Notes under the pieces: generated by a model
Told to the model about the DNA's origin: nothing
Databases searched by the model: none
What the model saw: the letters and a program-made list of their open reading frames with translations, nothing else
Assembly (NCBI GenBank): GCA_021372615.1
Contig: JAJFUB010000018.1
Coordinates: forward strand, 8,193-72,192
From: a bacterium
GTDB lineage: Bacteria; Armatimonadota; Zipacnadia; Zipacnadales; UBA11051
Direction: 5' to 3'
DNA: 64,000 nucleotides
Program-made: the position numbers and the translations under genes
In this document: positions 649 to 64,000 of the stretch, in pieces
Position numbering within the stretch: position 1 is the first letter of the stretch
Layout of the letters: each line of letters opens with the position of its first letter

Positions 649-845
649 GGGGCGGGGGTTGGGGATTGGGCATTGGGGATTGGGGACGGCGGAGGCAACG
701 GCTCGGATCTGCCTCACCCCCGGCGGCGGGGCCCGCCGCACACGTGAGACCGCAAGCGGTCTCGGCGGCACCCGCCGCCTGAGTGTTGCCCTACATGCCC
801 GGCCTTCACCAATGCCCAGTACCCAATGCCCAATCCCTAATGCCC
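649..845. repeat. G-tract spacer GGGGTTGGGGATTGGGCATTGGGGATTGGGG (649-690) and an inverted C-tract copy (812-845) flanking an intergenic region that also carries the ATCTGCCTCACCCCCGGC and GGCACCCGCCGCCTGAGTG motifs
   Basis: Four or more G-runs of 3-4 with 1-4-nt loops (canonical G-quadruplex motif) immediately after the DRTGG stop. The reverse-complement arrangement occurs 120 bp downstream. Confidence 0.6.
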
Positions 846-1706
846 AACACCTCCCTAGACCTGCATATCCATTCGGCGCTGTCACCGTGCGCTGACGAGG
901 CGATGCGGCCACCAGCGGTGCTGCTGACAGCGGAGCGGCGGGGGCTGGACGTGGTGGGGATCGTGGACCACTCAACGGGGCGGAACGGGTGGGCGTTTCT
1001 GACGGCGGCGGCGGCGTTTGAGGTGCAGGTGCTGGCGGGCCTGGAGATCGAGAGCAGTGAGGGCGTGCACCTGCTGGCGCTGTTCGATGGTCGCGAGGCG
1101 TTGGAGGATTTCGACGGGCTGGTGGCGCAACATCTGCCCGGCGGGTTGAACCGGCCGGAGGTGCTGGGGCCGCAACTACTGCTAGATGAGTGGGGCGAAG
1201 TGATCGGGGAGGAGCAGCGGCTGCTCATCACGGCGGTGGACCTGGGGCTGGAGCGGCTGGTGGCCATGATCGCCGATCATGGGGGGCTGAGCATCGCTGC
1301 TCACGTGGACCGGAATGCGAACGGGCTCCTGCCGACGCTGGGGTTCGTGCCGCCGAAGCTGCAGGTGGACCTACTGGAAGTGTCGTGGCGCATGACGCCG
1401 GCGGAGGCGCGGCGGCGGTGGCCGGAACTGGAGGCGTGGCCGCTGATCCGTAGCTCGGATGCGCATGTGCTGGAGGAGATCGGGCAGGGGAGCACGGTGG
1501 TGGAGGGGGGAGGCAAAGGCGACGGCTCCTCACCCCTACCCCTCTCCCTCGCGCGCGGTGAGGCTGCGCGCTCCGGAGAGGGGAACGGCAACGGCAAAGG
1601 CAACGGCAGCGACAACGGCTTGCCGGCTGGAAGCCGGCGCTCCTACGGCCTGCGGCAGTGGGTAGGGGAACTGGCGGAGGCGGTGCGGGTGAGCGAGGAT
1701 GCGTGA
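840..1706 (+). CDS. PHP (polymerase/histidinol-phosphatase) domain protein. The C-terminal region carries an in-frame palindromic repeat insertion.
   Basis: N-terminal LDLHIHSALSPCAD, VGIVDHST and later AAHVDRN motifs typical of PHP metal sites. The six-frame ORF starts at 783 but an internal Met at 840 precedes the PHP motif. The ORF runs through repeat element 1528-1650. Confidence 0.6.
   Translation: MPNTSLDLHIHSALSPCADEAMRPPAVLLTAERRGLDVVGIVDHSTGRNGWAFLTAAAAFEVQVLAGLEIESSEGVHLLALFDGREALEDFDGLVAQHLPGGLNRPEVLGPQLLLDEWGEVIGEEQRLLITAVDLGLERLVAMIADHGGLSIAAHVDRNANGLLPTLGFVPPKLQVDLLEVSWRMTPAEARRRWPELEAWPLIRSSDAHVLEEIGQGSTVVEGGGKGDGSSPLPLSLARGEAARSGEGNGNGKGNGSDNGLPAGSRRSYGLRQWVGELAEAVRVSEDA
1528..1650. 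repeat. family-1 palindromic element (CCTCACCCCTACCCCTCTCCCTCGC...GCTCCGGAGAGGGGAACGGCAACGGC) plus family-2 element (GCCGGCTGGAAGCCGGCGCTCCTACGG), lying inside the PHP ORF
   Basis: Near-identical copies at 10560-10650, 11440-11500, 20090-20150, 27860-27900 and 27990-28050. Family-2 copies at 34875-34905, 53600-53650, 30775-30810 and 56672-56700. Confidence 0.8.
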
Positions 1707-6404: not shown

Positions 6405-6495
6405 ACGGTCGCGGTCGGTGACCGACATCTGCCTCACCCCCGGCCCCTCTCCTTCGCGCTCGATACGGCTGAGCGCTCAGGAGAGGGGGGAGCGA
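6405..6495. repeat. family-3 palindrome (GTCGCGGTCGGTGACCGAC) plus a family-1-like hairpin (CCCCTCTCCTTCGCGC...GCGCTCAGGAGAGGGG)
   Basis: Intergenic region between hydB and hydA. Shared motif ATCTGCCTCACCCCCGGC also at 706-723. Confidence 0.7.
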
Positions 6496-9240: not shown

Positions 9241-9440
9241 CGAGGGGGCGGGCGGGGCAACGGCGGCCCACCCCCTGGCCCCCTCCCCGCGGGGGAGGGG
9301 GGGAAGGCCAACGGCGACCCACCCCCTGCCCCCTCCGGAGACGCTGCGCGTCTCACGGGGAGGGGGAACGGCAGACGGCACCCGCCGCCTGCCCCCTCCC
9401 CGCAGGAGAGGGGAACGGCAACGGCGGACGGCAGTCAGGG
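9241..9440. repeat. three tandem family-1 hairpin modules (CCACCCCCTGGCCCCCTCCCCGCGGGGGAGGGG / ...CTCCGGAGACGCTGCGCGTCTCACGGGGAGGGGG / ...CCCCCTCCCCGCAGGAGAGGGG), each followed by AACGGC hexamers
   Basis: Seen directly. Related copies throughout the window. Confidence 0.8.
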
Positions 9441-9546
9441 AGGTGGAGGATTCTTTGTGAAACTTCGTTCACAAATGCTAGTTCTGGGGTTTTGCTGTAC
9501 CTGCGATTATGGAGAGACGAATCAACACACACGCCGGGGACCTGTG

Positions 9547-11313
9547 ATGGAGCATGTGGATGAAGCGCGCACCAGAGCTGAACATGGGGGGCGGCACCGG
9601 AGGGTCTATGACGAGTGGCCGGTCGGGGTGCGGAGGTTCACGCAGGAGCGGCAGTACCTGGGGCTCGGCGACGAAGTGTACCCCCGCATCCTTGATACGC
9701 TGAGCCGCATCTTCCACGGGAAGTATGAGGAAGCAGCGCTGTGCTGGGGGATTGGATCGGGGAAGTCGTTCCTGTGCTCGCTGGCGCTGCTGTACATGGT
9801 GTACCGCACGCTGTGTCTGCGGGACCCGCAGCAGTACTACGGCCTGGCCGAGGGGAGCCCGATCCATATCGTGACGGTCGGGCCCACGGCACGCGTGGCC
9901 GAGAAGGCGATCTATGGCCAGATCCGCGGCATGGTGTCGCGGTCGCCGTGGTTCGCCGACAAGTACCCGGCCGACACCCGGACACGCCGCGAACTGCACT
10001 TCCCCAAGCATGTGGAGGTGCTGCCCGGGAACTCCAGCGACCTGTTCCCGCTGGGGCTCAATGTGCTGTGTGCGACCATGGACGAGGCAGCCTTCTTCGT
10101 CGAGACCCAGAGCGGCGGGCAGGAGGCAGCCGAAGAGGTGTACCTCGCACTGCAGCGGCGCATCAAGTCGCGGTTCGGTAGCCGGGGGCTCGTGCTAATC
10201 GCGTCCTCCCCACGGCACGGCGAGGACTTCATCATGCAGAAGCTGGCCGAGGCTGAGACGAACCCGACCGTCTTCGCGTCGCGCAAGGCCACCTGGGAAG
10301 TCAAGCCCGGCTTCAGCGGAGAGACGTGCGTCGAGGGCGGCCTGGAGGTGCCTGTGGAGCTGGCCGGGGAGTTCCGGCGCAACCCGCAGAAAGCGCGCCG
10401 TGACCTGGCCGCCCAGCCCGGAGCGGCGTACCAGCCGTTCTTTGTGGACATGGGGGCGCTGGAGGCGGCGTGCGGTGGGGCGCGGGACGGCGACGGCAAC
10501 GGCGTCCCACCCCCTGCCCCCTCCGCACGGGGGAGGGGGAACGTCAACGAGAACGTCAACGTCAACGGCGACGGCGTCCTCACCCCTACCCCTCTCCCTC
10601 GCCCGCCTTCGCCCTCCGGGCTACGGCAGGCTCCGGAGAGGGGAACGGCTGACGACAACGGCGGCCTACCCCGTCAGCGCTGCGCGCTGACACCCCTCCC
10701 TGGTAGGGAGGGGAAGGGCAACGGCGTGGAGGTGCGGCATCCGTTTGCGGAGGAGGGGAGGCTGGCGGATTGGTTCCGGCCTGATGATGCGGTGCCGCGC
10801 TATGTCCATATAGACCTGGGCCTCAAGAAGGACGCCTGCGGCATGGCCATGGCCAAGGTAGTCAGCGAGGGCGGGCAGCCTGTCGCGGTGGTCGAGCTGA
10901 TGCTGCAACTAACGGCACCGGCGGGCGGTGAAGTGAACCTCGCCACGCCACGGGAAATCGTGCTCGCTCTGCGCCGGCGAGGGTTCCCCATCGGCCAGGT
11001 GAGCTACGACGGATGGCAGAGCGCCGATAGCCTGCAGATCCTGCGCCGACACGGCGTGCGCGCGGTGACCGTGTCCGTGGACCGCGACCTGGGAGCGTAT
11101 GAGACGCTCAAGGAGCTGGCCAATGACGGGCGGCTGCGCATGTACCCCTTCAAGCCGTTCCTGGAGGAGTGCCGTCGGCTCGAACTGATCCAGGGGACCA
11201 AGGTGGATCACCCGGCCCATGGGTCCAAGGATGTGGCCGACGCGGTGGCCGGGGCGGTGAGCGAGGCGGTGAAGGCCTGGGGGGGGACGGATGTGAGGGG
11301 GAGGATCGTGTGA
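9547..11313 (+). CDS. terL: phage terminase large subunit (ATPase plus RNaseH-like nuclease). The inter-domain linker carries an in-frame palindromic repeat insertion.
   Basis: Walker A GIGSGKS, Walker B/catalytic VLCATMDEAAFF, C-terminal nuclease-like domain (YVHIDLGLKKDACGMAMAKV...DGWQSADS...DHPAHGSKDVADAV). The ORF track starts at 9457 and the first ATG is at 9475. An internal Met at 9547 (MEHVDE) is preferred but the start is uncertain. Repeat segment 10486-10725 translates as a low-complexity G/N/P-rich linker. Confidence 0.8.
   Translation: MEHVDEARTRAEHGGRHRRVYDEWPVGVRRFTQERQYLGLGDEVYPRILDTLSRIFHGKYEEAALCWGIGSGKSFLCSLALLYMVYRTLCLRDPQQYYGLAEGSPIHIVTVGPTARVAEKAIYGQIRGMVSRSPWFADKYPADTRTRRELHFPKHVEVLPGNSSDLFPLGLNVLCATMDEAAFFVETQSGGQEAAEEVYLALQRRIKSRFGSRGLVLIASSPRHGEDFIMQKLAEAETNPTVFASRKATWEVKPGFSGETCVEGGLEVPVELAGEFRRNPQKARRDLAAQPGAAYQPFFVDMGALEAACGGARDGDGNGVPPPAPSARGRGNVNENVNVNGDGVLTPTPLPRPPSPSGLRQAPERGTADDNGGLPRQRCALTPLPGREGKGNGVEVRHPFAEEGRLADWFRPDDAVPRYVHIDLGLKKDACGMAMAKVVSEGGQPVAVVELMLQLTAPAGGEVNLATPREIVLALRRRGFPIGQVSYDGWQSADSLQILRRHGVRAVTVSVDRDLGAYETLKELANDGRLRMYPFKPFLEECRRLELIQGTKVDHPAHGSKDVADAVAGAVSEAVKAWGGTDVRGRIV
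10486..10725. repeat. family-1 composite element inserted inside terL
   Basis: CCACCCCCTGCCCCCTCCGCACGGGGGAGGGGG. (AACGTC/AACGGC) hexamers. CCTCACCCCTACCCCTCTCCCTCGCCCGCCTTCGCCCTCCGGGCTACGGCAGGCTCCGGAGAGGGG. CACCCCTCCCTGGTAGGGAGGGG. Confidence 0.8.
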
Positions 11314-11319
11314 AGGAGG

Positions 11320-11570
11320 AGGCCGACCCTCACCCCCGGCCGCTCTCCCAGAGGGAGAGGGGAGCAGACGGCGGGGGTTGAAACCCCCGCCTGACGGGGA
11401 GGCGTCCCTCCGGGACGCCGGGACGGCAACGGCAACGGCGTCCTCACCCCTACCCCTCTCCCTCGGCCCGCTGCGCGGGCCTCCGGAGAGGGGAACGGCA
11501 ACGACGGCCTACCCCAGCCCTGCGGGCCACCCCTCCCTGAAGGGAGGGGGGAACGGCAACGACGGTGACG
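11320..11570. repeat. family-1 composite element between terL and portal (modules A, B and C)
   Basis: GGGGGTTGAAACCCCCGCCTGACGGGGAGGCGTCCCTCCGGGACGCC (module A, two short hairpins). AACGGC hexamers. CCTCACCCCTACCCCTCTCCCTCGGCCCGCTGCGCGGGCCTCCGGAGAGGGG. CCACCCCTCCCTGAAGGGAGGGGGG. Confidence 0.8.
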
Positions 11571-11719
11571 ACGGCGGTGTACGGGCGGCTCGGAAGCGAG
11601 GCGCTCTGTTCGGTTCTGGTGGGACGATGTGATGCTCTGACGGGGTCAGCCCCCCAGAGGACCGGATGCAGCCGGTCTTCCGGGGACGGACCCCACCCCG
11701 TACAGGTGGAGGCGAGGCA

Positions 11720-13090
11720 ATGTCGGATCTCGTGAAGGCGCAGGTTGTGGGGACGGACGGCAGAGGCGTGAGCAAGCAGTTGCCCGACTCGCCCTGGCAT
11801 GAGGCCTACGCACGGGGGGAAGTGGTGGAGCCCCCGTATGATCTGGAAGCGCTGGCAGCGCTGTATGAGACGAACTCGACCCACAAGGCGTGCGTGGACG
11901 CCAAGACCATCAACATCGTGGGGCTCGGGTACCGGTTCGTGCCCGTCGGGGGCGAGCGTGAGGCCGACAGCGGCAACCTGGCGCTGCTGCAGCACCTGTT
12001 CGACAACTCCAACCCCGAGATGACCTTCACCGAGGTGCTGCGGGCCGTGTGGACCGATGTGGAGTGCCTCGGGAATGGGTACCTGGAGTTGACCCGCAAC
12101 AGCCGGGGGCAGATTGACGGGATGTACCACGTGCCCGGGACGACGGTGCGGGTGCTGGCCGACCGATCCGGGTTCGTGCAGGTGCGCGACGGGAGGAAGC
12201 GGGTCTTCCGGAATGTGGGTGGAGAGCCGGTCGCGGTCGGTGACCGCTCCCACAACAGCACACAGGACGGGGGCGACGGGGGGCGGGGGGCGACTGCCAG
12301 CCTGGCAGATCATAGCGGGCGGGGTACGAGCGCCGCCCTGGCAGACCACAGTGGGCGGGGTACAAGCCCCCGCCCTACAGGGGACGCGGGCGAACAGAAT
12401 GAGGTGCTGCACTTCATGAAGTACACGCCGCAGTCCTCGTACTACGGGGTGCCCGACATCATCCCGGCGGTGTCCGCAGTGGCCGGCGATAAGGCGGCGC
12501 GCGAGTACAACATTGACTTCTTCAGCCACAACGCAGTGCCCCGGATGGCGATCATCGTCGAAGGGGGCGAGCTGTCCGAGGGCGTGGTGACGCAACTCAA
12601 GCACTTCATGGAGAGTGAGATCAAAGGGCATGGGCACAAGACGCTGGTGCTCGAGGTGCCCGGCGGCGGCGCCAACGTGAGGCTCGAGAAGCTCACCGTC
12701 GGAGGCTGCGAGGATGCGGCGTTCCTGGAGTACCGTCGGGCCAACCGGGATGAGGTGCTGCTGGTGCACCGCGTCCCGCCCAGCAAAGTGACCGTGGTCG
12801 AGAACGCCAACCTGGCCAACAGCAATGACCAGGACAAGACCTTCCGCGAGCAAGTCGTGCGGCCGGAACAGCGGCGGATCGAGTACCGGTTGAACCGGCT
12901 GGTGCGCGAGCAGCTCGGGATCGGGGACTGGGCCTTCCAGTTCAGGGAGATGGACCTGTCCGAGGCGCGCGAGGAGGCCGAGGTGGCTGCCATCTATGCC
13001 GGGATCGGAGTGCTGAGCGCGGAGGAAATCCGGGGGCGGCTCGGGATGGTGGCGTCGCCTGTGGCCCAGGCCGTCAGCGCTGGGCGGTGA
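11720..13090 (+). CDS. phage portal protein (HK97-like family)
   Basis: Immediately downstream of terL. 457 aa with a portal-like central region (KTINIVGLGYRF, YYGVPDIIPAVSAVAGDKAAREYNIDFFSHNAVPRMAIIVEGG). GGTGGAGG RBS before the ATG at 11720. The ORF contains a family-3 palindrome and an imperfect 36-bp tandem duplication (12234-12375). Confidence 0.7.
   Translation: MSDLVKAQVVGTDGRGVSKQLPDSPWHEAYARGEVVEPPYDLEALAALYETNSTHKACVDAKTINIVGLGYRFVPVGGEREADSGNLALLQHLFDNSNPEMTFTEVLRAVWTDVECLGNGYLELTRNSRGQIDGMYHVPGTTVRVLADRSGFVQVRDGRKRVFRNVGGEPVAVGDRSHNSTQDGGDGGRGATASLADHSGRGTSAALADHSGRGTSPRPTGDAGEQNEVLHFMKYTPQSSYYGVPDIIPAVSAVAGDKAAREYNIDFFSHNAVPRMAIIVEGGELSEGVVTQLKHFMESEIKGHGHKTLVLEVPGGGANVRLEKLTVGGCEDAAFLEYRRANRDEVLLVHRVPPSKVTVVENANLANSNDQDKTFREQVVRPEQRRIEYRLNRLVREQLGIGDWAFQFREMDLSEAREEAEVAAIYAGIGVLSAEEIRGRLGMVASPVAQAVSAGR
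12234..12375. repeat. family-3 palindrome (GGTCGCGGTCGGTGACCGCTCCCACA) plus an imperfect about 36-bp tandem duplication, inside the portal ORF
   Basis: Encodes ...SLADHSGRGTSAALADHSGRGTS... Family-3 copies at 6405, 35704, 37690-37765 (two inverted copies) and 51395. Confidence 0.7.
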
Positions 13091-13300
13091 GGGGCGGGGG
13101 GCAAGGGCGGGGGTTGAAACCCCCGCCTGACGGGGAAGCGTCCCTCCGGGACGCGGACGGAGGACGGCAACGGCGGCCCACCCCCTGCCCCCTCCCCACA
13201 GGGGAGGGGGAACGGCAACGGCAACGGCAGCAACGACGACCTACCCCCTGCCCCCTCCCTACAGGGAGGGGGGACGGCAACGACAACGGCGAACGGCGGT
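13091..13300. repeat. family-1 composite element (modules A, B and C twice) between portal and protease
   Basis: GGGGGTTGAAACCCCCGCCTGACGGGGAAGCGTCCCTCCGGGACGC. CCACCCCCTGCCCCCTCCCCACAGGGGAGGGGG. CTACCCCCTGCCCCCTCCCTACAGGGAGGGGGG. Confidence 0.8.
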
Positions 13301-15958: not shown

Positions 15959-18900
15959 ATGCGTAAGCAATTCCTGTATCTGGATAAGGCAGGCTTCTAC
16001 TACAACGCGCCGGGCAACATCAGCATGGGCTCGGGAGCGAAGGGGAGCGTGTTCTTCTGGTACCATCCGGCGCCGTGGAACGACGGCAACCAGCCGGTCT
16101 GGGAGGCCACGTTCGACAGCAGCAACTACCTGCGGTGTGGCTTTACGGGCAACTCGCGCTTCAGCTTCGTGAGCTGCTCGAACGGCGTATGGTACGCCGC
16201 ACACTGGAACGACTTCTTTGTGAAGGACTACCAGCGCTGGCTGCCAGTGCTGTGCACGTGGGACTTCACCACGGCCGGCGCCGGACAGCTGCGGCTGTAT
16301 CTGGACGGCCAGGAAGCGCCGACGCAGTCGAACACCGCCGAGGCGCCCCTCGGCGAGGCTCTGCGGCTGTACCTGGGGGCGCGGTCGGACACCACGGCGG
16401 TGGGACTGGACGGGTACCTGGACAACATCGCGATATGGGACGGGGTCATGACGGCGACCCAGTACGCGGCGCTGACCCGGGGCGCTGCCACGTACGCCGA
16501 GCGGCAAGCGGCGCGACGACGCCTGCCCCGACAGAGCGACGGGAATGGGACGCTGACTTTCCTGGCACCGTTCGACGGGACGTTCGCGGCGCAGATCGCC
16601 GGGGGCGACCCGCAGGCGTACTGGATGGTGGGGGCCAGCGACTACCACCACTTCGCGCGGCTGGATGACGGCTCGCGGAGCCGGGGTCGGCGGCAGATGT
16701 TCCGGTTTGGCATCCCGCGTCACGATGATTCGGATGACGACCGGGTGCCGCTGCGCGCGGTGCTGGGGCTGCTGCGCGACCAGGGCGCGTCGCAGTACAC
16801 GACGCTCGTGGACCAGGCGACGCACTCGGAGATCAACGTCAGCCAGTACAAGGCGATCTCGGGCTATGGGCAGGGCGTGGGATGGCTGCGCTCGGCCATA
16901 GACCCCGGTGACCTGCCGTACCCGACGACGGTGCGCATGCGCGTGAACCTGCCGGATGCGACGAACCCCAAGAACACGAGGATCTGCCTGGGCCCGCTGA
17001 CGTACATCAGCGGCGGGATGCACGGGAACAACTTCACGACCTGGGGCACGGGCGAGAGCTTCATGGTCGTCGCCGACGCCGGGAACACCGCGGGGACGAT
17101 CAAGACGAGCCTGAGCGCCCGGACGGATGGATACTGGGCGGCGGCCGAGATCTCCATGCAGACGGGGGCGTGCGCCGGCTGCCGGCTGAAGGTGAGCGGG
17201 TACACGGCGAGCACCGGAGTGCTGACGCTGTCGGGGACGTTGCCGGCCACGCCGGCGGCGGGCGATGTGGGCGTGGTGGACTTCCGGGGCCGGCTGGTGC
17301 CGACCGGCAATCCGTGCGATGAGACCCAGAGCATGGAGGCGTGGCTGTGGGAGGAGTATGGGGAGGACAGGCCGTGGATCGAGCTGGAGGCGGTGTACGG
17401 GGCGACCAGCGGCTTTGGGATGGCGCGCTACCAGCGGGGCCGGTCCACATGGATGAACCTGACGCGAGCGAACGGCGGCCTGCAGGGCGCGTACCTGATG
17501 ATGGGGCGGAACGCCTGGGAGACGCCGGAGAGCTTCAGCTGCAACATCCTGATCGAGAGCCTGGCCATTGACGGGCCGGGCAGCTACCAGGTGATGTCGC
17601 CGGAGACGACGCGTTCGGGGCGGGGGTTCGAGCTGGCGGACCACTTCCTGCTGCGCGACATGGGCAACGGGCATAGCTGCCGGGTGTGGCGGGCGGAGAA
17701 CTGCGGGTGGAACAGTGCGGCCCCCACCGTGAACGCCGACGCGAGCACGGCGGTCGCGGACCTGCAAGTCGCAGGGACGTGGCGGGAGGAGGCCTTCTTC
17801 CACAGCGCAGTGCGGACAGGCGAGGGGACCGACGCGGTCGTGGCGGTGGTCAGAGGTACGAGTTCTGAGGGGATTGACCGGCTGGGATACGTGCGAGGGC
17901 AGTGGAATGCGTCCACCCAGCGCATCACCTGGCAAGACGAGACACCGCCGACGGGCAAGAGCAACCCGTTCCTGGACATGAGCCTCCTGCGGCCGTGGGA
18001 AAACCGTGACTCTACCTGGGGCCTGGAGGGCGACCCCGGGCTGGCGCGGATCTTCAGCAACGCGGGGAGCGAATGGGCGCTGCTGCTGGGCGGGAACGAG
18101 GACAACCCGGATCATTACTATGTGCGGGCATATCACGGCGCTCCGGACCGCTGGAGCTTTGACCCGCAGCAGCACTGGTGGCCTGAGAACCCGGTGGTGC
18201 CGGGGTTCGGGGGCGTGGACATGATGCCGCCGAGCGGCGGTGGGGTGAACTGCTTCGGCAACCGGGACGCGGAATGGATGGTGCTGCAGAACCCGTACGC
18301 GCGGGACGCGAGCCGGCGCTTCGCGGCCTACGCCCGGTTCAAGACGATCCTGCCGCTGACGGGGATGATCGGGGGCAACCGGCGCCCGTTGGCGGGGTGG
18401 ACCAGCCCAGACCTGAAGAGCTTCTTCCTGCTGCCCCATGGCAACAGCCTGTCGCCGCTGGGGATCGGCGAGGGGTTCACGATGTGCCCCTATGCCGTGA
18501 GCGATGACGTGATCGCGATGGTGGTGCAGTTCTACGGCGGCGTGGATCGGCTGTGGGCGTCGGATGATGACCGGCACTTCCAGCAGGTGATCTACAGCTT
18601 CATGCCCGACAGCAACCCGCTGGACGTGTTCCGGCTGGGCGACAGGCGGATCTACTACTCTGCTACCTCCGGCAGCGTCTTCAACCTAGCGTACCAGGAC
18701 TACAACCGCGAGACGTTCTACCAGCTCAGCTCGGGGCAGGTAAGCGGGACCCTGGAGACAGCAGCGCTGGTCAAGCCGGCGGACGGATGGGGCGGCCTGA
18801 TCGTGAACGTCGCGCCGCAGCAGGGCGCAGTGCGGGTCGAGGTGCTGAACGCCCTGACGGACGAGGTGGTCGCGGGGTTCGGCACCGAGGACTGCGACAG

Positions 18901-20018: not shown

Positions 20019-20190
20019 GAGGGCGGGGGTTGAAACCCCCGCCTGTCGGAAGCGTCCCTCCGGGATGCTGACGGAGGACGGCGACGGCAACGGCGTCCTC
20101 ACCCCTACCCCTCTCCCGCGCTACGCGCCGGAGAGGGGAACGACTGCAGCAGCGGCGGGCTACGGAGAGGGGAACGCCAACGGCGGAAGG
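20019..20190. repeat. family-1 composite element
   Basis: Module A GGGGGTTGAAACCCCCGCCTGTCGGAAGCGTCCCTCCGGGATGC followed by CCTCACCCCTACCCCTCTCCCGCGCTACGCGCCGGAGAGGGG. Confidence 0.8.
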
Positions 20191-20548: not shown

Positions 20549-20800
20549 GACGGCGGCCCACCCCCTGCCCCCTCCCCGCAGGGGAGGGGGAACGGCTAAT
20601 GGCGGCCTCGCCCGGCAGCGGAACGCGGGGGTTCAAGCCCCCGCCTGTCAGAAGCGTCCCTCCGGGACGCAGGACGGCGACGGCGGCCTACCCCGGCCCT
20701 GCGGGCTACCCCTCCCTGAAGGGAGGGGTAAAGGCAACGGCGGCTCAGCCTCTGGCCCCCCTCCGGAGACGCTGCGCGTCTCACAGGGAGGGGGGACGGC
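20549..20800. repeat. family-1 composite element (module C, module A variant GGGGGTTCAAGCCCCCGCC, module C twice)
   Basis: CCACCCCCTGCCCCCTCCCCGCAGGGGAGGGGG. CTACCCCGGCCCTGCGGGCTACCCCTCCCTGAAGGGAGGGG. GGCCCCCCTCCGGAGACGCTGCGCGTCTCACAGGGAGGGGGG. Confidence 0.8.
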
Positions 20801-20829: not shown

Positions 20830-21513
20830 ATGGGACTGGACATGTATCATCACAACGAGATCGCGCGGGCGCTGCGGATGCTGGTGCAGGGGGCGTCGGG
20901 GCTGACCGCGGATGCTGACGGCAGCGACCTAGTGAACATCGAGGCCAGCCCGCTCTTCGAGGTGGGGGCGGCGGTACGGTTAGTGGATGACCACGGCGTG
21001 ATCGAGAACCACACGGTGGCGGAGAGGCTGTCGGGGCTTCAGGTGCGGCTGGAGGCGCCCGTGGCGGGGGCGTTCACCGTGGCGGCCGGGGCGCGGCTGC
21101 AGCTCGCCACCGGGGCCGGAGCAGGGCTGAAGTGGGTAGCGCAGGGGCGCCCGGAACTGATGCCGCGGGCGCAGGCCATGCAGTTGCCGGCGGTGGTCGT
21201 CGAGCCGGTGTCGCTGGAGCAGCCGCCGCAGGCCGGGACGAACCGGACCTATCAGCAGGACTACACCTTCCACCTCTACTACATCCGCAAGATCGCGGAG
21301 GGGGAGCAGGCGAGTGTGGAGCTGCAAGACGAACTCGCCGACCTGTTCAACCTGGTGATGGCCGACCCGTACCTGGGCGAGACGTGCTGGCATGCGCAGG
21401 TGACCGGGGTGCAGATGCGGCCCCCGGAGGAGGAGAAGCTGCGGGCAGTCGCGCCCGGCGTGCAGGCGGTGCGGATGGAGGTCGTGGCGCGGCGGTCGGA
21501 GGTGTGGGGGTGA
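20830..21513 (+). CDS. hypothetical phage structural protein
   Basis: GGAGGGA RBS. 227 aa. Followed by a G-tract spacer. Confidence 0.4.
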   Translation: MGLDMYHHNEIARALRMLVQGASGLTADADGSDLVNIEASPLFEVGAAVRLVDDHGVIENHTVAERLSGLQVRLEAPVAGAFTVAAGARLQLATGAGAGLKWVAQGRPELMPRAQAMQLPAVVVEPVSLEQPPQAGTNRTYQQDYTFHLYYIRKIAEGEQASVELQDELADLFNLVMADPYLGETCWHAQVTGVQMRPPEEEKLRAVAPGVQAVRMEVVARRSEVWG

Positions 21514-21585
21514 GGCAGGGGCGAGGGTCGAGGGGCGAGGGTCAAGGGTAACGGCGACGGCGGAGGCGACGGCAGGGGCGACGGG
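21514..21585. repeat. G-tract spacer (GGCAGGGGCGAGGGTCGAGGGGCGAGGGTCAAGGGTAACGGC...) after the stop of 20830-21513
   Basis: Seen directly. Confidence 0.55.
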
Positions 21586-22597: not shown

Positions 22598-22705
22598 TCG
22601 GCGGTTGAAGCCCCCGCCTGTGGGAAGCGTCCCTCCGGGACGCGGGACGGCAACGGCGTCCTACCCCCTGCCCCCTCCCTGAAGGGAGGGGGAACGGCAA
22701 CGGCA
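22598..22705. repeat. family-1 composite element (modules A, B and C)
   Basis: GGCGGTTGAAGCCCCCGCCTGTGGGAAGCGTCCCTCCGGGACGC. CTACCCCCTGCCCCCTCCCTGAAGGGAGGGGG. Confidence 0.8.
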
Positions 22706-24274: not shown

Positions 24275-24450
24275 GTCGGGGGTTGAAACCCCCGCCTATG
24301 GGAAGCGTCCCTCCGGGACGCGGACGGCGACGGCGACGGCAACAGCGACGGCGGCCTACCCCGGCCCTGCGGGCCACCCCTCCCTGAAGGGAGGGGTAGA
24401 GGCAACGGCTGCCTACCCCCTCCCTGAAGGGAGGGGGGAACGGCAACGAC
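24275..24450. repeat. family-1 composite element upstream of the large structural gene
   Basis: GGGGGTTGAAACCCCCGCCTATGGGAAGCGTCCCTCCGGGACGC. (GGCGAC)n. CTACCCCGGCCCTGCGGGCCACCCCTCCCTGAAGGGAGGGG twice. Confidence 0.8.
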
Positions 24451-27640: not shown

Positions 27641-28115
27641 GGGCCCTCACCCCCTGGCCCCCTCTCCCAGGGGGAGAGGGGGGAAAGGCGAACGGCGGGA
27701 GCGGGATGCCATGGCACAGCGTGCAGAGGACTCTTGACGCGACTCCGCCCGTCTTCGCCCTGTGGCTACTACGGCGGAGCGCGGGGGTTGAAACCCCCGC
27801 CTGTCGGAAGCGTCCCTCCGGGACGCGGGACGGCAACGGCAACGACAACGGCGTCCTCACCCCTACCCCTCTCCCTCGCCCGCCTTCGCCCTGCGGGCTA
27901 CGGCGGCGGAGCGCGGGGGTTGAGACCCCCGCCTGTCGGAAGCGTCCCTCCGGGACGCGGGACGACAACGGCAACGACAACGGCGTCCTCACCCCTACCC
28001 CTCTCCCTCGCCCGCCTTCGCCCTGCGGGCTACGGCGGGCTCCGGAGAGGGGAACGGCAACGACGGCCTACCCCGGCCCTGCGGGCCACCCCTCCCTGAA
28101 GGGAGGGGAACGGCA
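27641..28115. repeat. largest family-1 repeat island, containing a near-perfect tandem duplication of an about 127-bp unit (27769-27900 and 27896-28030)
   Basis: The unit is CTACGGCGGAGCGCGGGGGTTGA[A/G]ACCCCCGCCTGTCGGAAGCGTCCCTCCGGGACGCGGGACG[G/A]CAACGGCAACGACAACGGCGTCCTCACCCCTACCCCTCTCCCTCGCCCGCCTTCGCCCTGCGGG. Only 2 mismatches between copies. Confidence 0.8.
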
Positions 28116-31555: not shown

Positions 31556-31610
31556 CGGGGGTTGAACCCCCCGCCTGGGGGGAAGCGTCCCTCCGGGACG
31601 CCGGGGGGAG
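31556..31610. repeat. family-1 module A solo copy
   Basis: GGGGGTTGAACCCCCCGCCTGGGGGGAAGCGTCCCTCCGGGACGCC. Confidence 0.75.
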
Positions 31611-32668: not shown

Positions 32669-33568
32669 ATGAGGATGATACGGCTTGAGGGGCTGTCGCT
32701 GGTGGTCGAGGCGTTCCTGCGCGACCAGGGCTTCCGCGTGGACAGCGAGGCGGCGGGGTCGGCGCAGATCGTCGGGATTCGGGGAGCGCGGATCGTGCGC
32801 GCGGCAGACGGGGAGGTCCAGGGCCTCAGCATCCTTCCGAGCCCGACGGCCATCACCGATCGCTATGATGACGCCATCTTCGTGTGTGGCCGCAAGGCCG
32901 GCGGCGAGCGCTACGCAGATGTGTTCCAGGCATCGCTGCAACCCGGCCGGGCGAGCTTCGCCCTGGCGCACTACCGGAACCGGGGCTGTCCCATCGTGCA
33001 GCCGGGGCAGTACCAGTATGGCAGAGGCCTGCACAACCCGCCCAGCGGTCAGTCCTACCCGGCGCTGCGGCAGCGGGCCGCCATCGTCGTCGTGCGCGAC
33101 TACGACCAGGATGCGCTGCAGGAGGCGACCGACCGGTGGGACTACCCGGCCAGCGGGCTGAACATCCACGCCGGCGGCGCGTCCGAGAGCGTGGGGCGCT
33201 GGTCAGAGGGCTGCCAGGTGATCCGGGGGGGACGCGGTGCCGGGAGTCCCTGGAGCCGGTTCCGCCGCCTCGTCTACGAGGTCGCGGCACCCCAGAGCGT
33301 GTTCCACTATGCGCTGGTGGACGGCGAGTTCTTCGGCAAGTGGTTTGACGCGGGGGGCGCATCGCGGAGCGATGCGGGCACGCGGAGAGCGGTGCGGCGG
33401 CTGTGGTTCGGGTCGCACGGGGAGCGTGTGGCGGAGCTGCAGGAGCGGCTGGTGAAGCTCGGGCACTACCATGCCGGCGGCGTGGACGGGGAGTTCGGCG
33501 TGAAGACCCACATGGCGGTACGGCGGTGGCAGGCGGCGGAGGGGAAGGCAGTGACGGGAGTCGTTTGA
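32669..33568 (+). CDS. endolysin: cell-wall hydrolase with a C-terminal peptidoglycan-binding (PG_binding_1) domain
   Basis: C-terminal RRLWFGSHGERVAELQERLVKLGHYHAGGVDGEFGVKTHMAVRRWQAAEGKAVTGVV matches the PG_binding_1 pattern. The N-terminal catalytic fold is not assigned. GGAGG RBS. Confidence 0.6.
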   Translation: MRMIRLEGLSLVVEAFLRDQGFRVDSEAAGSAQIVGIRGARIVRAADGEVQGLSILPSPTAITDRYDDAIFVCGRKAGGERYADVFQASLQPGRASFALAHYRNRGCPIVQPGQYQYGRGLHNPPSGQSYPALRQRAAIVVVRDYDQDALQEATDRWDYPASGLNIHAGGASESVGRWSEGCQVIRGGRGAGSPWSRFRRLVYEVAAPQSVFHYALVDGEFFGKWFDAGGASRSDAGTRRAVRRLWFGSHGERVAELQERLVKLGHYHAGGVDGEFGVKTHMAVRRWQAAEGKAVTGVV

Positions 33569-33690
33569 GGGTCAAGGGTCGAGGGTCTGGGGTGAAGGGT
33601 AGCGGCAACGGCAACGACAACGGCGCAGCCCCACCGTGAGGGACTGCGCCGTTACCCTAGACCCTATACCCCAGACCCTTCACCCTTTCC
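33569..33690. terminator. G-tract/C-tract imperfect palindrome between the convergent endolysin and oxidoreductase genes (bidirectional terminator candidate)
   Basis: GGGTCAAGGGTCGAGGGTCTGGGGTGAAGGGTAG ... CTACCCTAGACCCTATACCCCAGACCCTTCACCC. Confidence 0.4.
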
Positions 33691-33691
33691 C

Positions 33692-34735
33692 CTACTCCAC
33701 CTTCACCGCGCAGCCGGTGCGGGCCGATTCATAGCAGGCGTCGATGACCTTGTGGCTCCAGATGCCGTCTTCGCCCGGGATCGGCACGGGCGTATCGTTG
33801 GCGATGGCATCGCAGAAGGCCTGGACGTGGGCCTGGTACATGTTCGTCACTGCCGGCTCGATGATCTGCTCGCCGGTCTCCTCGCGCTTCTGGCCCGCGT
33901 CGTACCCCCTGTCGCCCTGCTCCACCACGGCGTGCAACTGCCCCGCTGAGCTCTGGCCGATGGTGCCGAAGGCGTAGACGCTACCCTTGGAGCCGTAGAC
34001 TTCCAGGGCGTTGCGCGCCGCCGCGTCCGGGACGTTGAAGAGCGCGTCCACCACCCCGATGGCCCCGTTCTCGAACTGCAGCATCGCCACCGCCGTGTCC
34101 TCGGTCGCGTAGTCCTGGACGAGGTTCCCGGTGTAGCACTTCACCTCGCGCACCCGGCCGAAGAACTGCTCCAGCAGGTCCACGCAGTGGTTCCCCATGT
34201 CAATGAAGCTGCCGCCGCCGCCCAGCTCGGGGTCCTGACGGAAGGCGCCGGGGATGGGCGGATACCAGCAGGTCAGCTCGGCGCGGCCCATGACCAGCGT
34301 GCCCAGGTCGCCGGCATCCACCATCTGCTTGAGCGCCAGGTGGCAGGCGTGGAAGCGCATCATGAAGTTGATGCCCAGCTTCACGCCGCGGGAAGCGCAC
34401 TCCTCGACGATCTCCTCACACTGCGGCAGCGTCAGCGCCAAGGGCTTCTCGCACAGTACGTGCTTGCCGGCCTCGGCAGCGGCCATGACCTGGCTATAGT
34501 GCAGATGGGTCGGGGTGGCGATGTAGACCGCTTGCACGTTGGGGTCGTTGAGCAGGTCGTACTCGCTGGTGTAGACCGCCTTGACGCCGTGCCTCTCGGC
34601 GACCGCCTTGACCCGATCTTCGGCGACATCCTGGACGGCGACGAGGGTGGCGTCGGGGCAGGGCATGATGCCCTCGGGTATGGTGCGGCGATCGGCGATG
34701 CCACCGGCTCCGATGACTCCCCAGTTGATGGACAT
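33692..34735 (-). CDS. Gfo/Idh/MocA family NAD(P)-dependent oxidoreductase
   Basis: N-terminal GVIGAGGIADRRTIP Rossmann motif and the EKPLALTLPQCEEI signature of the family. Confidence 0.85.
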   Translation of the reverse strand: MSINWGVIGAGGIADRRTIPEGIMPCPDATLVAVQDVAEDRVKAVAERHGVKAVYTSEYDLLNDPNVQAVYIATPTHLHYSQVMAAAEAGKHVLCEKPLALTLPQCEEIVEECASRGVKLGINFMMRFHACHLALKQMVDAGDLGTLVMGRAELTCWYPPIPGAFRQDPELGGGGSFIDMGNHCVDLLEQFFGRVREVKCYTGNLVQDYATEDTAVAMLQFENGAIGVVDALFNVPDAAARNALEVYGSKGSVYAFGTIGQSSAGQLHAVVEQGDRGYDAGQKREETGEQIIEPAVTNMYQAHVQAFCDAIANDTPVPIPGEDGIWSHKVIDACYESARTGCAVKVE

Positions 34736-35708: not shown

Positions 35709-35916
35709 GTCGTCGCGGTCGGTGACCACTCCCGCAGGGCGGCGCCCGGAGGCCGCTTCTTCCCAGTAGGGCAGGCGGCCTCGCCTGCCTACCCGTCCCG
35801 CGCGGGCGGGGCCGCCCGCGCTACGCCGGGGGCGGCAGGAGTTGACTAATACTTGCGGCGGGGGCCATGTCTGCCTGAGGCAGACGCCCCGCCCTGATCG
35901 AGAGAGGCTGATTGGC

Positions 35917-37632
35917 ATGTCCAAGTTCTCTGATTTCCGCACGGGCGAGGGCCCGCTCAACGAGTTCCAGCAGGTCTGGCACCTGTATGGCCAGGGCCTC
36001 GACAAGCTGCAGCAGGACCCGCAGACGATGCCCTCCTACGGGCCGGATGAGCTGCTGGCGCGCATTGATGCCTGCGGCCTGTGTTTCTCGGATGTCAAGG
36101 TCATCCGGCAGGGCGGCGCGCACCCGCGGCTGTTTAGCCGCGACCTGGAGCATGACCCGGTCATCCTCGGGCACGAAGTGGCCCTGACGATCGTCGGCGT
36201 GGGCGCGAACATGGCGGACCAGTACGCGATCGGCCAGCGCTTCGTCGTGCAGGCCGAGATCTACTACCAGGGCAAGAACCTGGCGTTCGGGTATATGCTG
36301 CCGGGCGGACTCGAGCAGTATGTCACGCTGTCCAATGAGGTCCTGCGCGGCGACGACGGGTGCTACCTGATCCCCGTGCACGCCGACACGGGCTATGCCG
36401 AGGCGGCGCTGGCCGAGCCGTGGGCCTGCGTGGTGCGGGCCTATCGCGATACCCGGCGCAAGAGCCTCAAGCCCGGCGGGAAGGCCTGGGTCATCGGCAC
36501 CGCCGAGGGTGAGAAGCTGAGCTATGGGATGAGCGATTTGGACACGTCCGCGCTGCCGGCGGAGATCGTGCTGACCAATTGCCCGGCGTCCTTCGCCCAG
36601 ACCATCAAGACCATTGCCAGCGTCACGAGCATCAAGGTCACGACCGCTGACGGCGCGGACCTGCCGGCCATCGCCGCGGCGCAGGCCCCCGACGGCTTTG
36701 ACGAGATCTTCGTCCTGGGCGCGGACGTCGCGGTCGTCCAGGCAGTGGCCCCGTTGCTGGGCAAGGAGGGCGTGATGACCCTCGTCACCGAGGGCGCCCT
36801 CGACCAGATGATCGAGATTGACGTGGGCCGCGTGCACTATGACGCGCTGCAGTATGCGGCGACGAGCCCGGGCCGGCCGCTGGGCGGCTACAAGGCGCCG
36901 CGTCCGCTGAAGCTGCAGCAGGACGGCCAGTGCTGGATCTGCGGGGCTGGCGGGCCGATGGGCCAGATGCACGTGCAGCTCGCCATCGAGGCCTCCGATG
37001 GGCCGCGCACAGTCGTATGCACGGACATTGACACCGAGCGCCTCAGCCGCATCCCCATCCGCTTTGGCGAAGCTGCCCAGCGACGCGGCTGCAAGCTCGT
37101 GCTGCTCAACCCCAAGGAACTCGGCGACCAGTTTGAGGCCGAGCTGAACAAGATCGCGCCTGAGGGCTTCGACGATGTGGTCTGCCTGGTGCCTGTCCCG
37201 GCGATCATCAGCCAGTGCAGCCGCTTCGTGGGCAAGCGCGGGGTCTACAACATCTTCGCCGGCGTCGGCCGCGGCACGATGGCCCAGATGGACATGAACA
37301 AGGTCATCGCCAACAACGCTCGCTGGTTCGGGTCCAGCGGCTCGTTCATTGACGACCTGAAGATGACCCTGACGCTGGCCGAAAAGGGCGAGTTGTCGCC
37401 CAACATGGCCGTGGCGGCGGTCGGTGGGATCGAGGCCGTGCAGGACGGCCTGACCGCCGTGTCCGAGAGCGCCATGCCTGGTAAGATCGTCATCTACCCG
37501 CACATCGCGCACCTCCCGCTGACGACGCTGCCGCAGTTGCATCAGAAGATGCCGGCCGTGGCCGCGAAGCTGGGCCCCGACGACACATGGACCCGCGAAG
37601 CGGAGGAGGCGTTGCTGGAGGAGTTGCTGTAG
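35917..37632 (+). CDS. zinc-binding medium-chain dehydrogenase/reductase (polyol/sugar-phosphate dehydrogenase-like) with a C-terminal extension
   Basis: CGLCFSDVKV and GHEVALTIVGVG catalytic-zinc motifs. Rossmann fold CGAGGPMGQMHVQLAI. ATG at 35917. Confidence 0.7.
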   Translation: MSKFSDFRTGEGPLNEFQQVWHLYGQGLDKLQQDPQTMPSYGPDELLARIDACGLCFSDVKVIRQGGAHPRLFSRDLEHDPVILGHEVALTIVGVGANMADQYAIGQRFVVQAEIYYQGKNLAFGYMLPGGLEQYVTLSNEVLRGDDGCYLIPVHADTGYAEAALAEPWACVVRAYRDTRRKSLKPGGKAWVIGTAEGEKLSYGMSDLDTSALPAEIVLTNCPASFAQTIKTIASVTSIKVTTADGADLPAIAAAQAPDGFDEIFVLGADVAVVQAVAPLLGKEGVMTLVTEGALDQMIEIDVGRVHYDALQYAATSPGRPLGGYKAPRPLKLQQDGQCWICGAGGPMGQMHVQLAIEASDGPRTVVCTDIDTERLSRIPIRFGEAAQRRGCKLVLLNPKELGDQFEAELNKIAPEGFDDVVCLVPVPAIISQCSRFVGKRGVYNIFAGVGRGTMAQMDMNKVIANNARWFGSSGSFIDDLKMTLTLAEKGELSPNMAVAAVGGIEAVQDGLTAVSESAMPGKIVIYPHIAHLPLTTLPQLHQKMPAVAAKLGPDDTWTREAEEALLEELL

Positions 37633-37798
37633 GGATTGCTGGTTGTGCGGTCGGAAGCGGGAAGCGATGGCGCTGTTCGCTGCGGGCACGACGTGGGAGC
37701 GGTCACCGACCGCGACCGGCCCGGACGGCTGTCGCGGTGGGTGACCGCTCCCACAGCACACATTGCGGCAAGATGATCGCTGGAGCGTGGAGATAGAG

Positions 37799-48698: not shown

Positions 48699-48723
48699 GT
48701 GCGTGCTCCCTGGTGCTTGTGTG

Positions 48724-48795
48724 AACGGCGGCCTACCCCCCAGCCCCCTCCCTAAAGGGAGGGGGAACGGCAACGGCAGACGGCGACGGCTCAGT
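48724..48795. repeat. family-1 module C solo copy
   Basis: CTACCCCCCAGCCCCCTCCCTAAAGGGAGGGGGAACGGCAACGGC. Confidence 0.75.
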
Positions 48796-63888: not shown

Positions 63889-64000
63889 CTTTCTCCCCCT
63901 CCCTGCAGGGAGGGGGTCGGGGGGTAGGACGCCGTTCATCACCGCCACCAACGGCTGCCCACCCCCGCCGCTGCGCGGCGACCCCTCCCTAAGGGGAGGG
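63889..64000. repeat. family-1 module C copies at the window edge
   Basis: CCCCCTCCCTGCAGGGAGGGGG and CGACCCCTCCCTAAGGGGAGGG. Confidence 0.7.

Follow-up and report, generated by a model that had tools for sequence, protein, structure and literature searches.

A repeat array probably copied into the hinge of a large terminase gene and read in frame in an Armatimonadota bacterium

In a bacterium assigned to the Armatimonadota (assembly GCA_021372615.1), the gene for the large terminase subunit, TerL, contains an in-frame segment of 249 nucleotides on a 64,000-nucleotide stretch of contig JAJFUB010000018.1 that was analyzed as a whole and is referred to here as the window. Comparison with related loci and proteins (given L and P numbers below) identifies this segment as copied repeat-array DNA and not ancestral terminase sequence. 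We consider it very probable that 10477-10725 is a piece of the interspersed repeat arrays of this genome that was copied into the hinge of TerL and is translated as a tolerated, disordered loop; for the translation of the 83 inserted codons, the support is sequence comparison and a predicted structure. The first-pass annotation of this DNA had described a 240-bp palindromic element between the ATPase and nuclease domains, with the open reading frame (ORF) continuous across it and an added Gly/Asn/Pro-rich linker of about 80 residues. No stop codon was found in 10486-10725, the orthologue alignment placed the element between the two domains, and the linker, of 83 residues, is unstructured in an AlphaFold2 model. 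The length of 240 bp holds for the array proper, to which nine further bases on the 5′ side have to be added, and the sequence is indeed a genome-wide repeat read in frame, although it is not one element with defined ends but an array of three hairpins together with a truncated module of a further type, H1.

The host gene was assigned from the PHROGs family phrog_2, "terminase large subunit" (4.3e-10, residues 85-614), and from a fold search, since a Pfam scan gave no domain match for the window protein; PF27249 is carried by 85 homologues. An AlphaFold2 model built on 26 homologues matched the HK97 TerL structure 6z6d in Foldseek (E = 9.8e-16) as well as the D6E, T4 gp17 and Sf6 gp2 TerL structures, isolated ATPase-domain and nuclease-domain structures were matched separately, and the nuclease domain resembles those of the G20c and P74-26 TerLs. 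The protein has the large-terminase arrangement of an N-terminal ASCE ATPase with Walker A (GIGSGKS, 9748-9768) and Walker B (MDEA, D209/E210 at 10081-10086) motifs and a C-terminal RNase H-like nuclease. In an alignment of the window TerL with 25 orthologues (A1, 26 sequences), D209, E210 and the nuclease aspartates D453, D518 and D584 are invariant and G102, K103 and S104 are nearly so. The NCBI record annotates a single coding sequence whose product, P0001, begins at 9628; because conserved residues extend upstream of this point, the alignment suggests the ATG at 9547 as the true start. Metagenome-assembled genomes (MAGs) labelled Armatimonadota or Armatimonadetes are the closest relatives. 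Four homologues of 796-893 amino acids (P0074, P0075, P0076 and P0080) carry intein and homing-endonuclease domains (PF14528, PF05203/PF05204, PF14890, PF13392).

The insert is an array of three hairpin modules, H2, H3 and H4, placed head to tail and joined by (AACGGC)n-type hexamer spacers (Table 1). A repeat search of the window assigned 10486-10725 to the overlapping families D1, D2, D3, D5, D7, D8, D10, D12, D14, D15 and D18, the other copies of which lie mostly in the gaps between genes of the surrounding cluster. The nine bases before the array and the first spacer align (A6) with the H1 3′ arm of intergenic arrays, using the H1 copies at 22620, 13131 and 27803, indicating that the insert opens with a truncated H1 module. 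The blocks of H2 in the array reading are CCCACCCCC-TG-CCCCCTCC-GCAC-GGGGGAGGGGG, and the spacer that follows, at 10540-10575, is 12 nucleotides shorter in the relatives L001 and L130. H3 is identical at 72 of 74 positions (97%; alignment A5) to an intergenic copy lying 17 kb off at 27986-28058. Two intergenic arrays, 11422-11563 and 27986-28110, share the order spacer-H3-spacer-H4-spacer with the insert, and in the first of them H3-spacer-H4-spacer takes up 11440-11563. An 11-nucleotide direct repeat, GGCAACGGCGT, at 10495-10505 and 10717-10727 flanks most of the array; it is the spacer motif itself and the sole flanking direct repeat, and the insert ends show no terminal inverted repeats and no target-site duplication. 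Folded as RNA with ViennaRNA, the 249 nucleotides reach -140.8 kcal/mol (z = -4.18, with none of 200 shuffles as good), compared to z = +1.34 for a control piece of the same length from the same gene. In the AlphaFold2 model, residues 342-423 have a predicted local distance difference test score (pLDDT) below 50 and zero secondary structure, with confident domains on either side, so that the insert is predicted to be an unstructured loop between the TerL domains. A search of the 83-residue peptide against 1.84 billion representative proteins returned seven matches, all of them unrelated repeat proteins (EF-hand DxNGDG and FN3, for example), indicating that the insert is not a protein domain, and no Rfam family was matched by any module at gathering thresholds or at an E-value ≤ 1.

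Comparison with relatives indicates that the hinge gained this DNA. The insert is missing from 17 of the 25 aligned orthologues, namely all 13 outgroup TerLs and the ingroup proteins P0005, P0010, P0013 and P0014 (66-73% identical), which have a hinge of 11 to 12 residues between "...LEAAC" and "xxxRHP", and the 83 extra residues of the window protein fall exactly at this hinge. Viral-contig relatives in IMG/VR match TerL over about 1,450-1,560 nucleotides, that is, without the insert. The first-pass annotation had proposed an orthologue alignment as a check, an ancestral linker being the outcome that would speak against insertion; what the alignment gave is a clean insertion of 3n nucleotides, which contradicts an ancestral linker. 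Eight further ingroup lineages have 36-104 residues at the same hinge that are mutually unrelated in sequence, and in most insert-bearing relatives the hinge DNA consists of the same kind of modules in a different composition: one H3-type module in L004, which is also present at 15975-16034 and 20912-20975 between genes of that genome, four or five modules in L005, and two each in L007 and L008. The hinge of L006 / P0004 holds a 55-residue insert without recognizable hairpin modules. Insert-free and insert-bearing lineages are interleaved in a neighbour-joining TerL tree, for which several independent gains of arrays at the hinge would be the simplest reading. With small differences, the window, L001, L130 and L212 all carry the same insert; as these are four independent assemblies, it is not an assembly artefact. 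L001 departs from the window after 11560, and L130 has the normal TerL-portal order. L212 was the one contig recovered in a scan of JGI metagenomes for the occupied 5′ junction, and it carries a variant allele in which H2 plus one spacer is missing, a deletion of exactly 72 nucleotides.

Two other genes in the window run through repeat modules, as the first-pass annotation had stated. In the portal gene, where a family-3 palindrome and a 36-bp duplication had been reported, 54 codons occupy a position at which the orthologues, mostly 395-415 amino acids long, have about eight residues ("xDPETGxx"; alignment A3). The duplicated unit (12311-12346, repeated at 12347-12382) contains an H1a-like hairpin; exactly one unit is absent from L130, and P0087 lacks 24 residues. 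The portal hairpin recurs at 6405 and, inverted, at 37693, with 12226-12253 being 100% complementary to 37693-37720. The relatives P0105 and P0112 have arrays of 120 residues at another place in the portal. In L008 (4887-6411), the portal is split into two gene calls by a frameshift inside an array insert of roughly 100 residues, which is due either to the hairpins having been missequenced or misassembled or to an array that truly broke the gene. In the gene for a PHP-domain phosphoesterase, the family-1 plus family-2 element that had been described accounts for 46 codons where orthologues have about seven residues, after which the conserved C-terminal helix LRxWxxxLAEALR follows in frame (alignment A4; 495 homologues, typically of 245-250 amino acids). 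The relative P0207 / L129 is missing 24 nucleotides of spacer, and other relatives have a family-3 module (P0210 and P0212) or an H1 module (P0211) at the same site. Proteins identical to the window TerL and portal, and none identical to the PHP product, were found at NCBI; it may be that the source record does not annotate the PHP gene or marks it as a pseudogene, perhaps owing to the insert. A 596-amino-acid ADH-like ORF (35842-37632) with a gap between two Pfam domains was considered as a further carrier and rejected, as the sequence there is ordinary and not repeat-derived.

The pattern of substitution differs sharply between the insert and its flanks. By the Nei-Gojobori method, comparing the window with L001 (TerL protein 94% identical, insert 12 nucleotides shorter), the ratio of nonsynonymous to synonymous substitution rates (omega) was 0.05 for the 5′ flank (synonymous divergence, dS, 0.36), 0.096 for the 3′ flank (dS 0.24) and 0.56 for the insert (dS 0.11). 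Differences at codon positions one, two and three numbered 3/6/7 in the insert versus 12/5/83 in the flanks (Fisher p = 0.0016). These values indicate that the flanking TerL domains are intact and under strong purifying selection and that the gene is functional. Over 9.7 kb compared with L130, the insert diverged by 7.0%, intergenic arrays by 6.4-7.3% and other intergenic DNA by 9-10%, with 16.7% at 4-fold degenerate sites and 2.9% at codon positions one and two. The insert thus evolves as non-coding array DNA does and not as protein, save that its indels are all multiples of three. Indels within coding arrays measured 12 nucleotides in TerL, 3 and 36 in the portal, 24 in PHP and 72 in the TerL of L212, all five being multiples of three, as against 3 of 21 intergenic indels, indicating that the reading frame of the insert is kept by selection.

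The peptide itself appears to be incidental, since all three frames of the H3 block are used (CTC-ACC-CCT in TerL, TCA-CCC-CTA in PHP and CCT-CAC-CCC in the L008 TerL) and the peptide has no protein relatives; across genes and lineages, the sequences point to no conserved repeat-encoded peptide. Across the 16 arrays of the window, 27 of 48 sense frames are open, in agreement with the earlier remark that long stop-free stretches are expected in GC-rich DNA, and the sole open frame of the TerL array is the one in use. A stop-free reading alone is therefore not improbable, and what goes beyond chance is that the downstream domains are conserved and in frame.

By their block structure, the modules are assigned to the BoxC/PIT/TM class of "intrastrand triplex motifs". 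The E. coli motif TMECO, CCCTCTCCC-loop-GGGAGAGGG-NNN-GGGTGAGGG, was described by Holder et al. 2015 (PMC4666352, where Hoyne et al. 2000 is cited) as forming a triplex in vitro, as present in >260 bacterial genomes and, in E. coli, as always intergenic and tied to local sequence instability. H3 has the form CCTCACCCC-NN(N)-CCCCTCTCCC-loop-GGGAGAGGGG, which is the exact reverse complement of the TMECO blocks. All three modules of the insert consist of three G/C-rich blocks, a hairpin plus a third block mirroring one arm (CCTCACCCC / CCCCTCTCC / GGAGAGGGG in H3, CCCACCCCC / CCCCCTCC / GGAGGGGG in H2 and CCTACCCC / CCCCTCCCT / AGGGAGGGG in H4), with H2 and H4 being variants of the published consensus (CCCCCTCC where the consensus type has CCCTCTCC). 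Triplex formation by the window modules would be predicted from the motif class, ViennaRNA modeling hairpins only. The window copies and their flanks are indel-prone, as reported for the E. coli motif. That motif occurs singly or in inverted pairs without strand bias, whereas the window modules form head-to-tail arrays with spacers and inner hairpins. A strict three-block pattern found 17 modules in the window, 16 of them on the + strand, with 14 in intergenic DNA (about 87% of the window is coding) and three inside TerL and PHP. While the E. coli copies are reported to be always intergenic, three genes in 64 kb here would translate repeat modules, those in TerL and PHP being of TM type; lying between genes is what has been reported of the copies in E. 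coli and does not belong to the structural definition of the class. The array organization, the strand bias and the intragenic copies are new relative to the E. coli description. When the block CCTCACCCCNNNCCCCTCTCCC was scanned across 185,579 species genomes, the matches listed included Chloroflexota, Planctomycetota, Cyanobacteria, Acidobacteriota, Bacteroidota, Pseudomonas, Xanthomonas and Armatimonadota, and GGGAGAGGG follows the block in 94 of the 155 matches listed.

The comparison with Rickettsia palindromic elements (RPEs) made in the first-pass annotation holds for behavior only: both are hairpin-folding interspersed repeats found in frame in unrelated, functional, even essential genes without inactivating them, adding a peptide at a tolerated position. 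There is no sequence relation by description, as the window modules have BoxC/TM-type blocks and the architecture of PMC4666352. An RPE is a single palindrome of 100-150 bp, whereas the insert is a 249-nucleotide array of three short hairpins and spacers, and the reduced genome of an intracellular bacterium contrasts with that of an Armatimonadota host, free-living or environmental. Rickettsia genomes are AT-rich, whereas the insert is GC-rich (72%). Each RPE family encodes a conserved peptide (Ogata et al. 2000, summarized in PMC10969869), while all three frames are used here. The insert therefore behaves like an RPE without being one. [quoted passage not shown] Like the intragenic MITEs discussed there (ERIC, BOX, QMITE1 and Anabaena MITEs), the insert is a non-autonomous repeat read through as extra residues; unlike them, it is a truncated array segment without defined ends, and identity with a MITE was rejected because no arms pair the two ends and the 5′ end is a truncated H1. 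With repetitive extragenic palindromic (REP) sequences and bacterial interspersed mosaic elements (BIMEs) of Enterobacteria and Pseudomonas, the arrays share short GC-rich imperfect palindromes in mosaics, a location in the gaps after genes in operons, and a strain-variable copy number. BIMEs, however, alternate REP orientation, whereas each array of the window runs strictly head to tail along a single strand. By definition, REPs lie outside genes, and neither a GTAG-type head nor a RAYT gene was seen in the window.

These results are consistent with an origin in which arrays of a C-rich third-strand block and C-rich/G-rich hairpin modules, normally occupying gaps between genes, had segments copied between sites, one of which would have landed in the flexible ATPase-nuclease hinge of TerL. 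Copying by recombination, template switching or slippage between arrays, and not transposition, would best fit the truncated 5′ module, the lack of terminal inverted repeats or a target duplication, the presence of GGCAACGGCGT at both ends, and the gain and loss of modules between near-identical alleles. The insert presumably survived because its length is 3n and its landing frame has no stop; since window arrays usually have at least one open frame, we estimate that roughly one in five insertions would keep the ORF. The product would be a disordered Gly/Asn/Pro/Arg-rich loop of 83 residues that the enzyme tolerates, with selection retaining only insertions in loops that accept extra disordered residues, and the inserts would be neutral or slightly deleterious passengers and not functional parts of the proteins.

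Several observations weigh against this account. The omega value of the insert rests on 16 substitutions. No empty-site allele, with flanks joined within 0-30 nucleotides, was found in the JGI metagenome scan of close relatives, so that the scan did not capture a recent insertion, and the distribution of inserts could also stem from one ancient gain with later module turnover and two precise losses. No transposase domain was found in a Pfam scan of the roughly 44 ORFs of the 64-kb window, which leaves room for a RAYT or other transposase gene elsewhere in the genome. The arrays diverge more slowly than 4-fold degenerate sites (p = 1e-6) and lie nearly all on the gene strand (16 of 17 TM modules and 25 of 25 H1 modules), hinting at nucleotide-level constraint or gene conversion, and a purely passive view may be too simple. 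A bolder possibility, which we think rather improbable, is that a conserved, possibly domesticated (gene-transfer-agent-like) head-tail cluster of Armatimonadota uses H1 and the TM-type modules as an orientation-locked system of nucleic-acid signals, the arrays having recurred at the TerL hinge and in portal loops through targeted insertion or positive selection; segmental mRNA stability or processing and translational pausing would be candidate roles.

Somewhat less likely still is that the TerL array is retained for a function of its own, for example through strong mRNA folding that halts ribosomes between the domains or regulates expression of the cluster, or as a longer hinge that aids the packaging motor. 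The recurrence of arrays at this hinge in five or more lineages, their nucleotide divergence of about half that of 4-fold sites, their nearly constant orientation and the very stable RNA fold would all be expected if this were so. However, close and distant relatives work without the insert, module content varies among near-identical alleles (H2 present or absent, a spacer longer or shorter by 12 nucleotides), non-array intergenic DNA diverges similarly, and in E. coli PIT/TM motifs acted neither as promoters nor as terminators (PMC4666352); the recurrence is equally explained if the hinge is the one permissive site.

We also find it unlikely, a shade more so, that TerL is broken at the array, as a pseudogene or as an ATPase and a nuclease translated separately, with a frame left open by high GC content alone. 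From base composition, the chance that a given frame of 249 nucleotides at 68-72% GC lacks a stop is roughly 0.15-0.2, more than half of the array frames are open, a GTG follows the array (GVEVRHP), and the L008 portal ORF is frameshifted inside its array. Against this stand the strong purifying selection on both halves and their intact catalytic residues, the restriction of in-gene indels to 3n, which would be needless if the halves were translated separately, the single-chain form of insert-free orthologues, and the fact that only the used frame is open. It is very unlikely that the segment is an ancestral or locally expanded low-complexity linker with no more than a resemblance to the repeats: hinge length does vary in several relatives, L006 / P0004 among them, but all outgroups and four ingroup lineages share the short hinge, H3 is nearly identical to an intergenic copy, the module order is that of intergenic arrays, and the inserts of different lineages are non-homologous and yet match repeats of their own genomes. 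Removal of the insert after transcription or translation, by an intein, an intron or translational bypass, is the least credible option, since, despite the inteins of some TerL homologues and the identical in-frame GGC-AAC-GGC-GT at both ends of most of the array, superficially like take-off and landing sites, the window TerL has no Pfam or intein domain, the junctions have no Cys/Ser/Thr nucleophile or His-Asn (the insert starts GG and ends GNG followed by V), no Rfam intron or other RNA family was matched, no stop codon forces a bypass, and the sequence is the ordinary intergenic repeat of the genome.

Under the copied-array interpretation, "selfish DNA inside protein-coding genes", for which Rickettsia is the best-known case, extends to a GC-rich free-living phylum, to the BoxC/PIT/TM family, which E. 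coli is reported to carry strictly between genes, and to the core virion-assembly genes for TerL and the portal. It is a well-documented case of a known type of event, the in-frame read-through of intragenic repeats, and involves no new mechanism; its chief value is the recurrence at a defined hinge of the packaging motor, a natural map of where this motor tolerates 30-100 extra disordered residues. In practice, metagenome assemblies break at such arrays, as at the ends of L130 and L212; gene calls come out split or frameshifted, as for the portal of L008; and repeat-derived peptides inflate families of "hypothetical proteins".

Table 1. Positions in the window of the TerL insert, its host gene, the other in-frame inserts and the neighboring arrays
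Feature	Position	Strand	Description
TerL (large terminase) gene	9547-11313	+	stop-free ORF opens at 9457 (9457-11313, 618 codons)
TerL ATPase domain	9607-10476	+	about residues 51-340; pLDDT mostly 80-96
TerL in-frame insert	10477-10725	+	249 nucleotides = 83 codons, residues 341-423, GGARDGDGNG...GREGKGNG
5′ junction of insert	10477-10503	+	GGGGCGCGG: 3′ arm of second H1 hairpin (GGGACGCGG), then spacer GACGGCGACGGCAACGGC
First spacer of TerL array	10486-10503	+	
Module H2	10504-10539	+	GTCCCACCCCC-TG-CCCCCTCC-GCAC-GGGGGAGGGGG: third-strand block, then hairpin; families D1/D2; three-block pattern match 10506-10537
Spacer after H2	10540-10575	+	(AACGTC/AACGAG/AACGGC/GACGGC)x6; encodes NVNENVNVNGDG
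Module H3	10576-10649	+	GTCCTCACCCC-TA-CCCCTCTCCC, inner hairpin, GGAGAGGGG-AACGGC; BoxC/PIT/TM-type
Spacer, module H4 and terminal spacer	10650-10725	+	CCTACCCC, inner hairpin GTCAGCGC-TGC-GCGCTGAC, CCCCTCCCT-GGT-AGGGAGGGG, end spacer AAGGGCAACGGC
TerL reading frame across the two insert junctions			predicted peptides LEAACGGARDGDGNG and GKGNGVEVRHPF
TerL nuclease (RNase H-like) domain	10726-11313	+	in frame after insert; pLDDT mostly 80-93
Intergenic array upstream of TerL	9245-9432	+	three TM-type modules
Intergenic array downstream of TerL	11326-11572	+	TM module, H1, spacer, H3, spacer, H4, spacer
Portal gene	11720-13090	+	P0086 start; ORF opens at 11666; PF04860 2.4e-39, phrog_12 2.9e-57
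Portal in-frame insert	12233-12394	+	54 codons, AVGDRSH...DAGE; family-3 hairpin GCGGTC-GGT-GACCGC, G-rich DNA, 36-bp tandem duplication
Intergenic array after portal	13100-13300	+	H1 and two H2 modules; L130 one H2 fewer (69-nucleotide indel)
Largest intergenic array	27645-28112	+	holds the H3 copy most similar to that of the TerL insert
H1 copies	11370-11418, 13105-13154, 20022-20068, 20626-20670, 22599-22643, 24277-24321, 27782-27826, 27914-27958, 31557-31601		
PHP-domain phosphoesterase gene	840-1706	+	adjoins [FeFe]-hydrogenase operon; PF02811, PF13263
PHP in-frame insert	1512-1649	+	46 codons: H3 module (1527-1589), spacers, family-2 hairpin GCCGGC-TGGAA-GCCGGC

TerL heads a 24-kb head-tail cluster that continues with the portal, an S78 protease, the capsid, a 1136-amino-acid LamG/Ig protein, a head-tail adaptor, a tail tube, two large proteins and an endolysin-like protein. 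The gene order of this cluster, from TerL to the endolysin (window 9457-33568), is kept in many Armatimonadota MAGs (L002, L004, L006, L007 and L130), the flanking host genes differ among MAGs, all gaps contain host-type repeats, and neither integrase nor replication genes were found near it. The cluster may be a domesticated element resembling a gene transfer agent rather than an ordinary prophage; a literature search for gene transfer agents in Armatimonadetes returned nothing relevant. In L131 (48-977), a portal protein identical to that of L130 is preceded by a gene for a CxxCxxCC protein and not by TerL; at the array, either the DNA was rearranged or the assembly is chimeric. Contigs ending inside arrays were L212 (2610-2694), L130 at its start and L129 at its end.

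The intergenic gaps of the cluster are arrays of a few hairpin modules and (AACGGC)n-type spacers, every one of them oriented with the gene strand and placed head to tail. The array at 11326-11572 differs from that of L130 by module-level indels of 2, 13, 2, 6, 20 and 4 nucleotides, and the largest array contains a 132-nucleotide tandem duplication (27764-28027, 97% identical) of an H1, spacer and H3 unit. H1 is bipartite, consisting of GGCGGGGGTTGAAACCCCCGCC, 6-10 nucleotides and then GCGTCCCTCCGGGACGC, and is usually the first module past a stop codon. It was also found in L004, L005, L007, L130 and L131, with all 25 copies in 12 loci on the gene strand. In L004 and L007, the first stem is swapped for GACCGGCAyTGAArTACCGGTC, both sides being changed, and the second hairpin is unchanged. 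H1 has no U-tract and no Rfam match, and it could be a protein- or RNA-level signal. A single 467-amino-acid ORF in L004 (13390-14793) covers two window genes, the protease and the next gene, and contains three H1-bearing units with a period of 219 nucleotides (73 codons); this may be a tandem array that fused two genes.

Outside the phage-like cluster, TM-type modules were found at 48722-48792 and 63894-63938. The + strand carries one of them, which has a − strand gene on either side and is hence antisense to these genes, and the other is the only − strand copy in the window, indicating that module orientation does not simply follow transcription everywhere. A coding tandem repeat at 53714-53837, within a − strand gene (53657-55387), has a 12/27-nucleotide spacing (ACAGGCGCTGTGGCAGGCGTCGTGG...) and is unrelated to the hairpin arrays. 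Separate G-rich heptad or decamer runs (GGGGATTGGG, GGGTCGAGGG) precede (AACGGC)n spacers at 646-702, 815-845, 21517-21573 and 33568-33693; two of these sites pair as long inverted repeats, and the runs could form G-quadruplexes.

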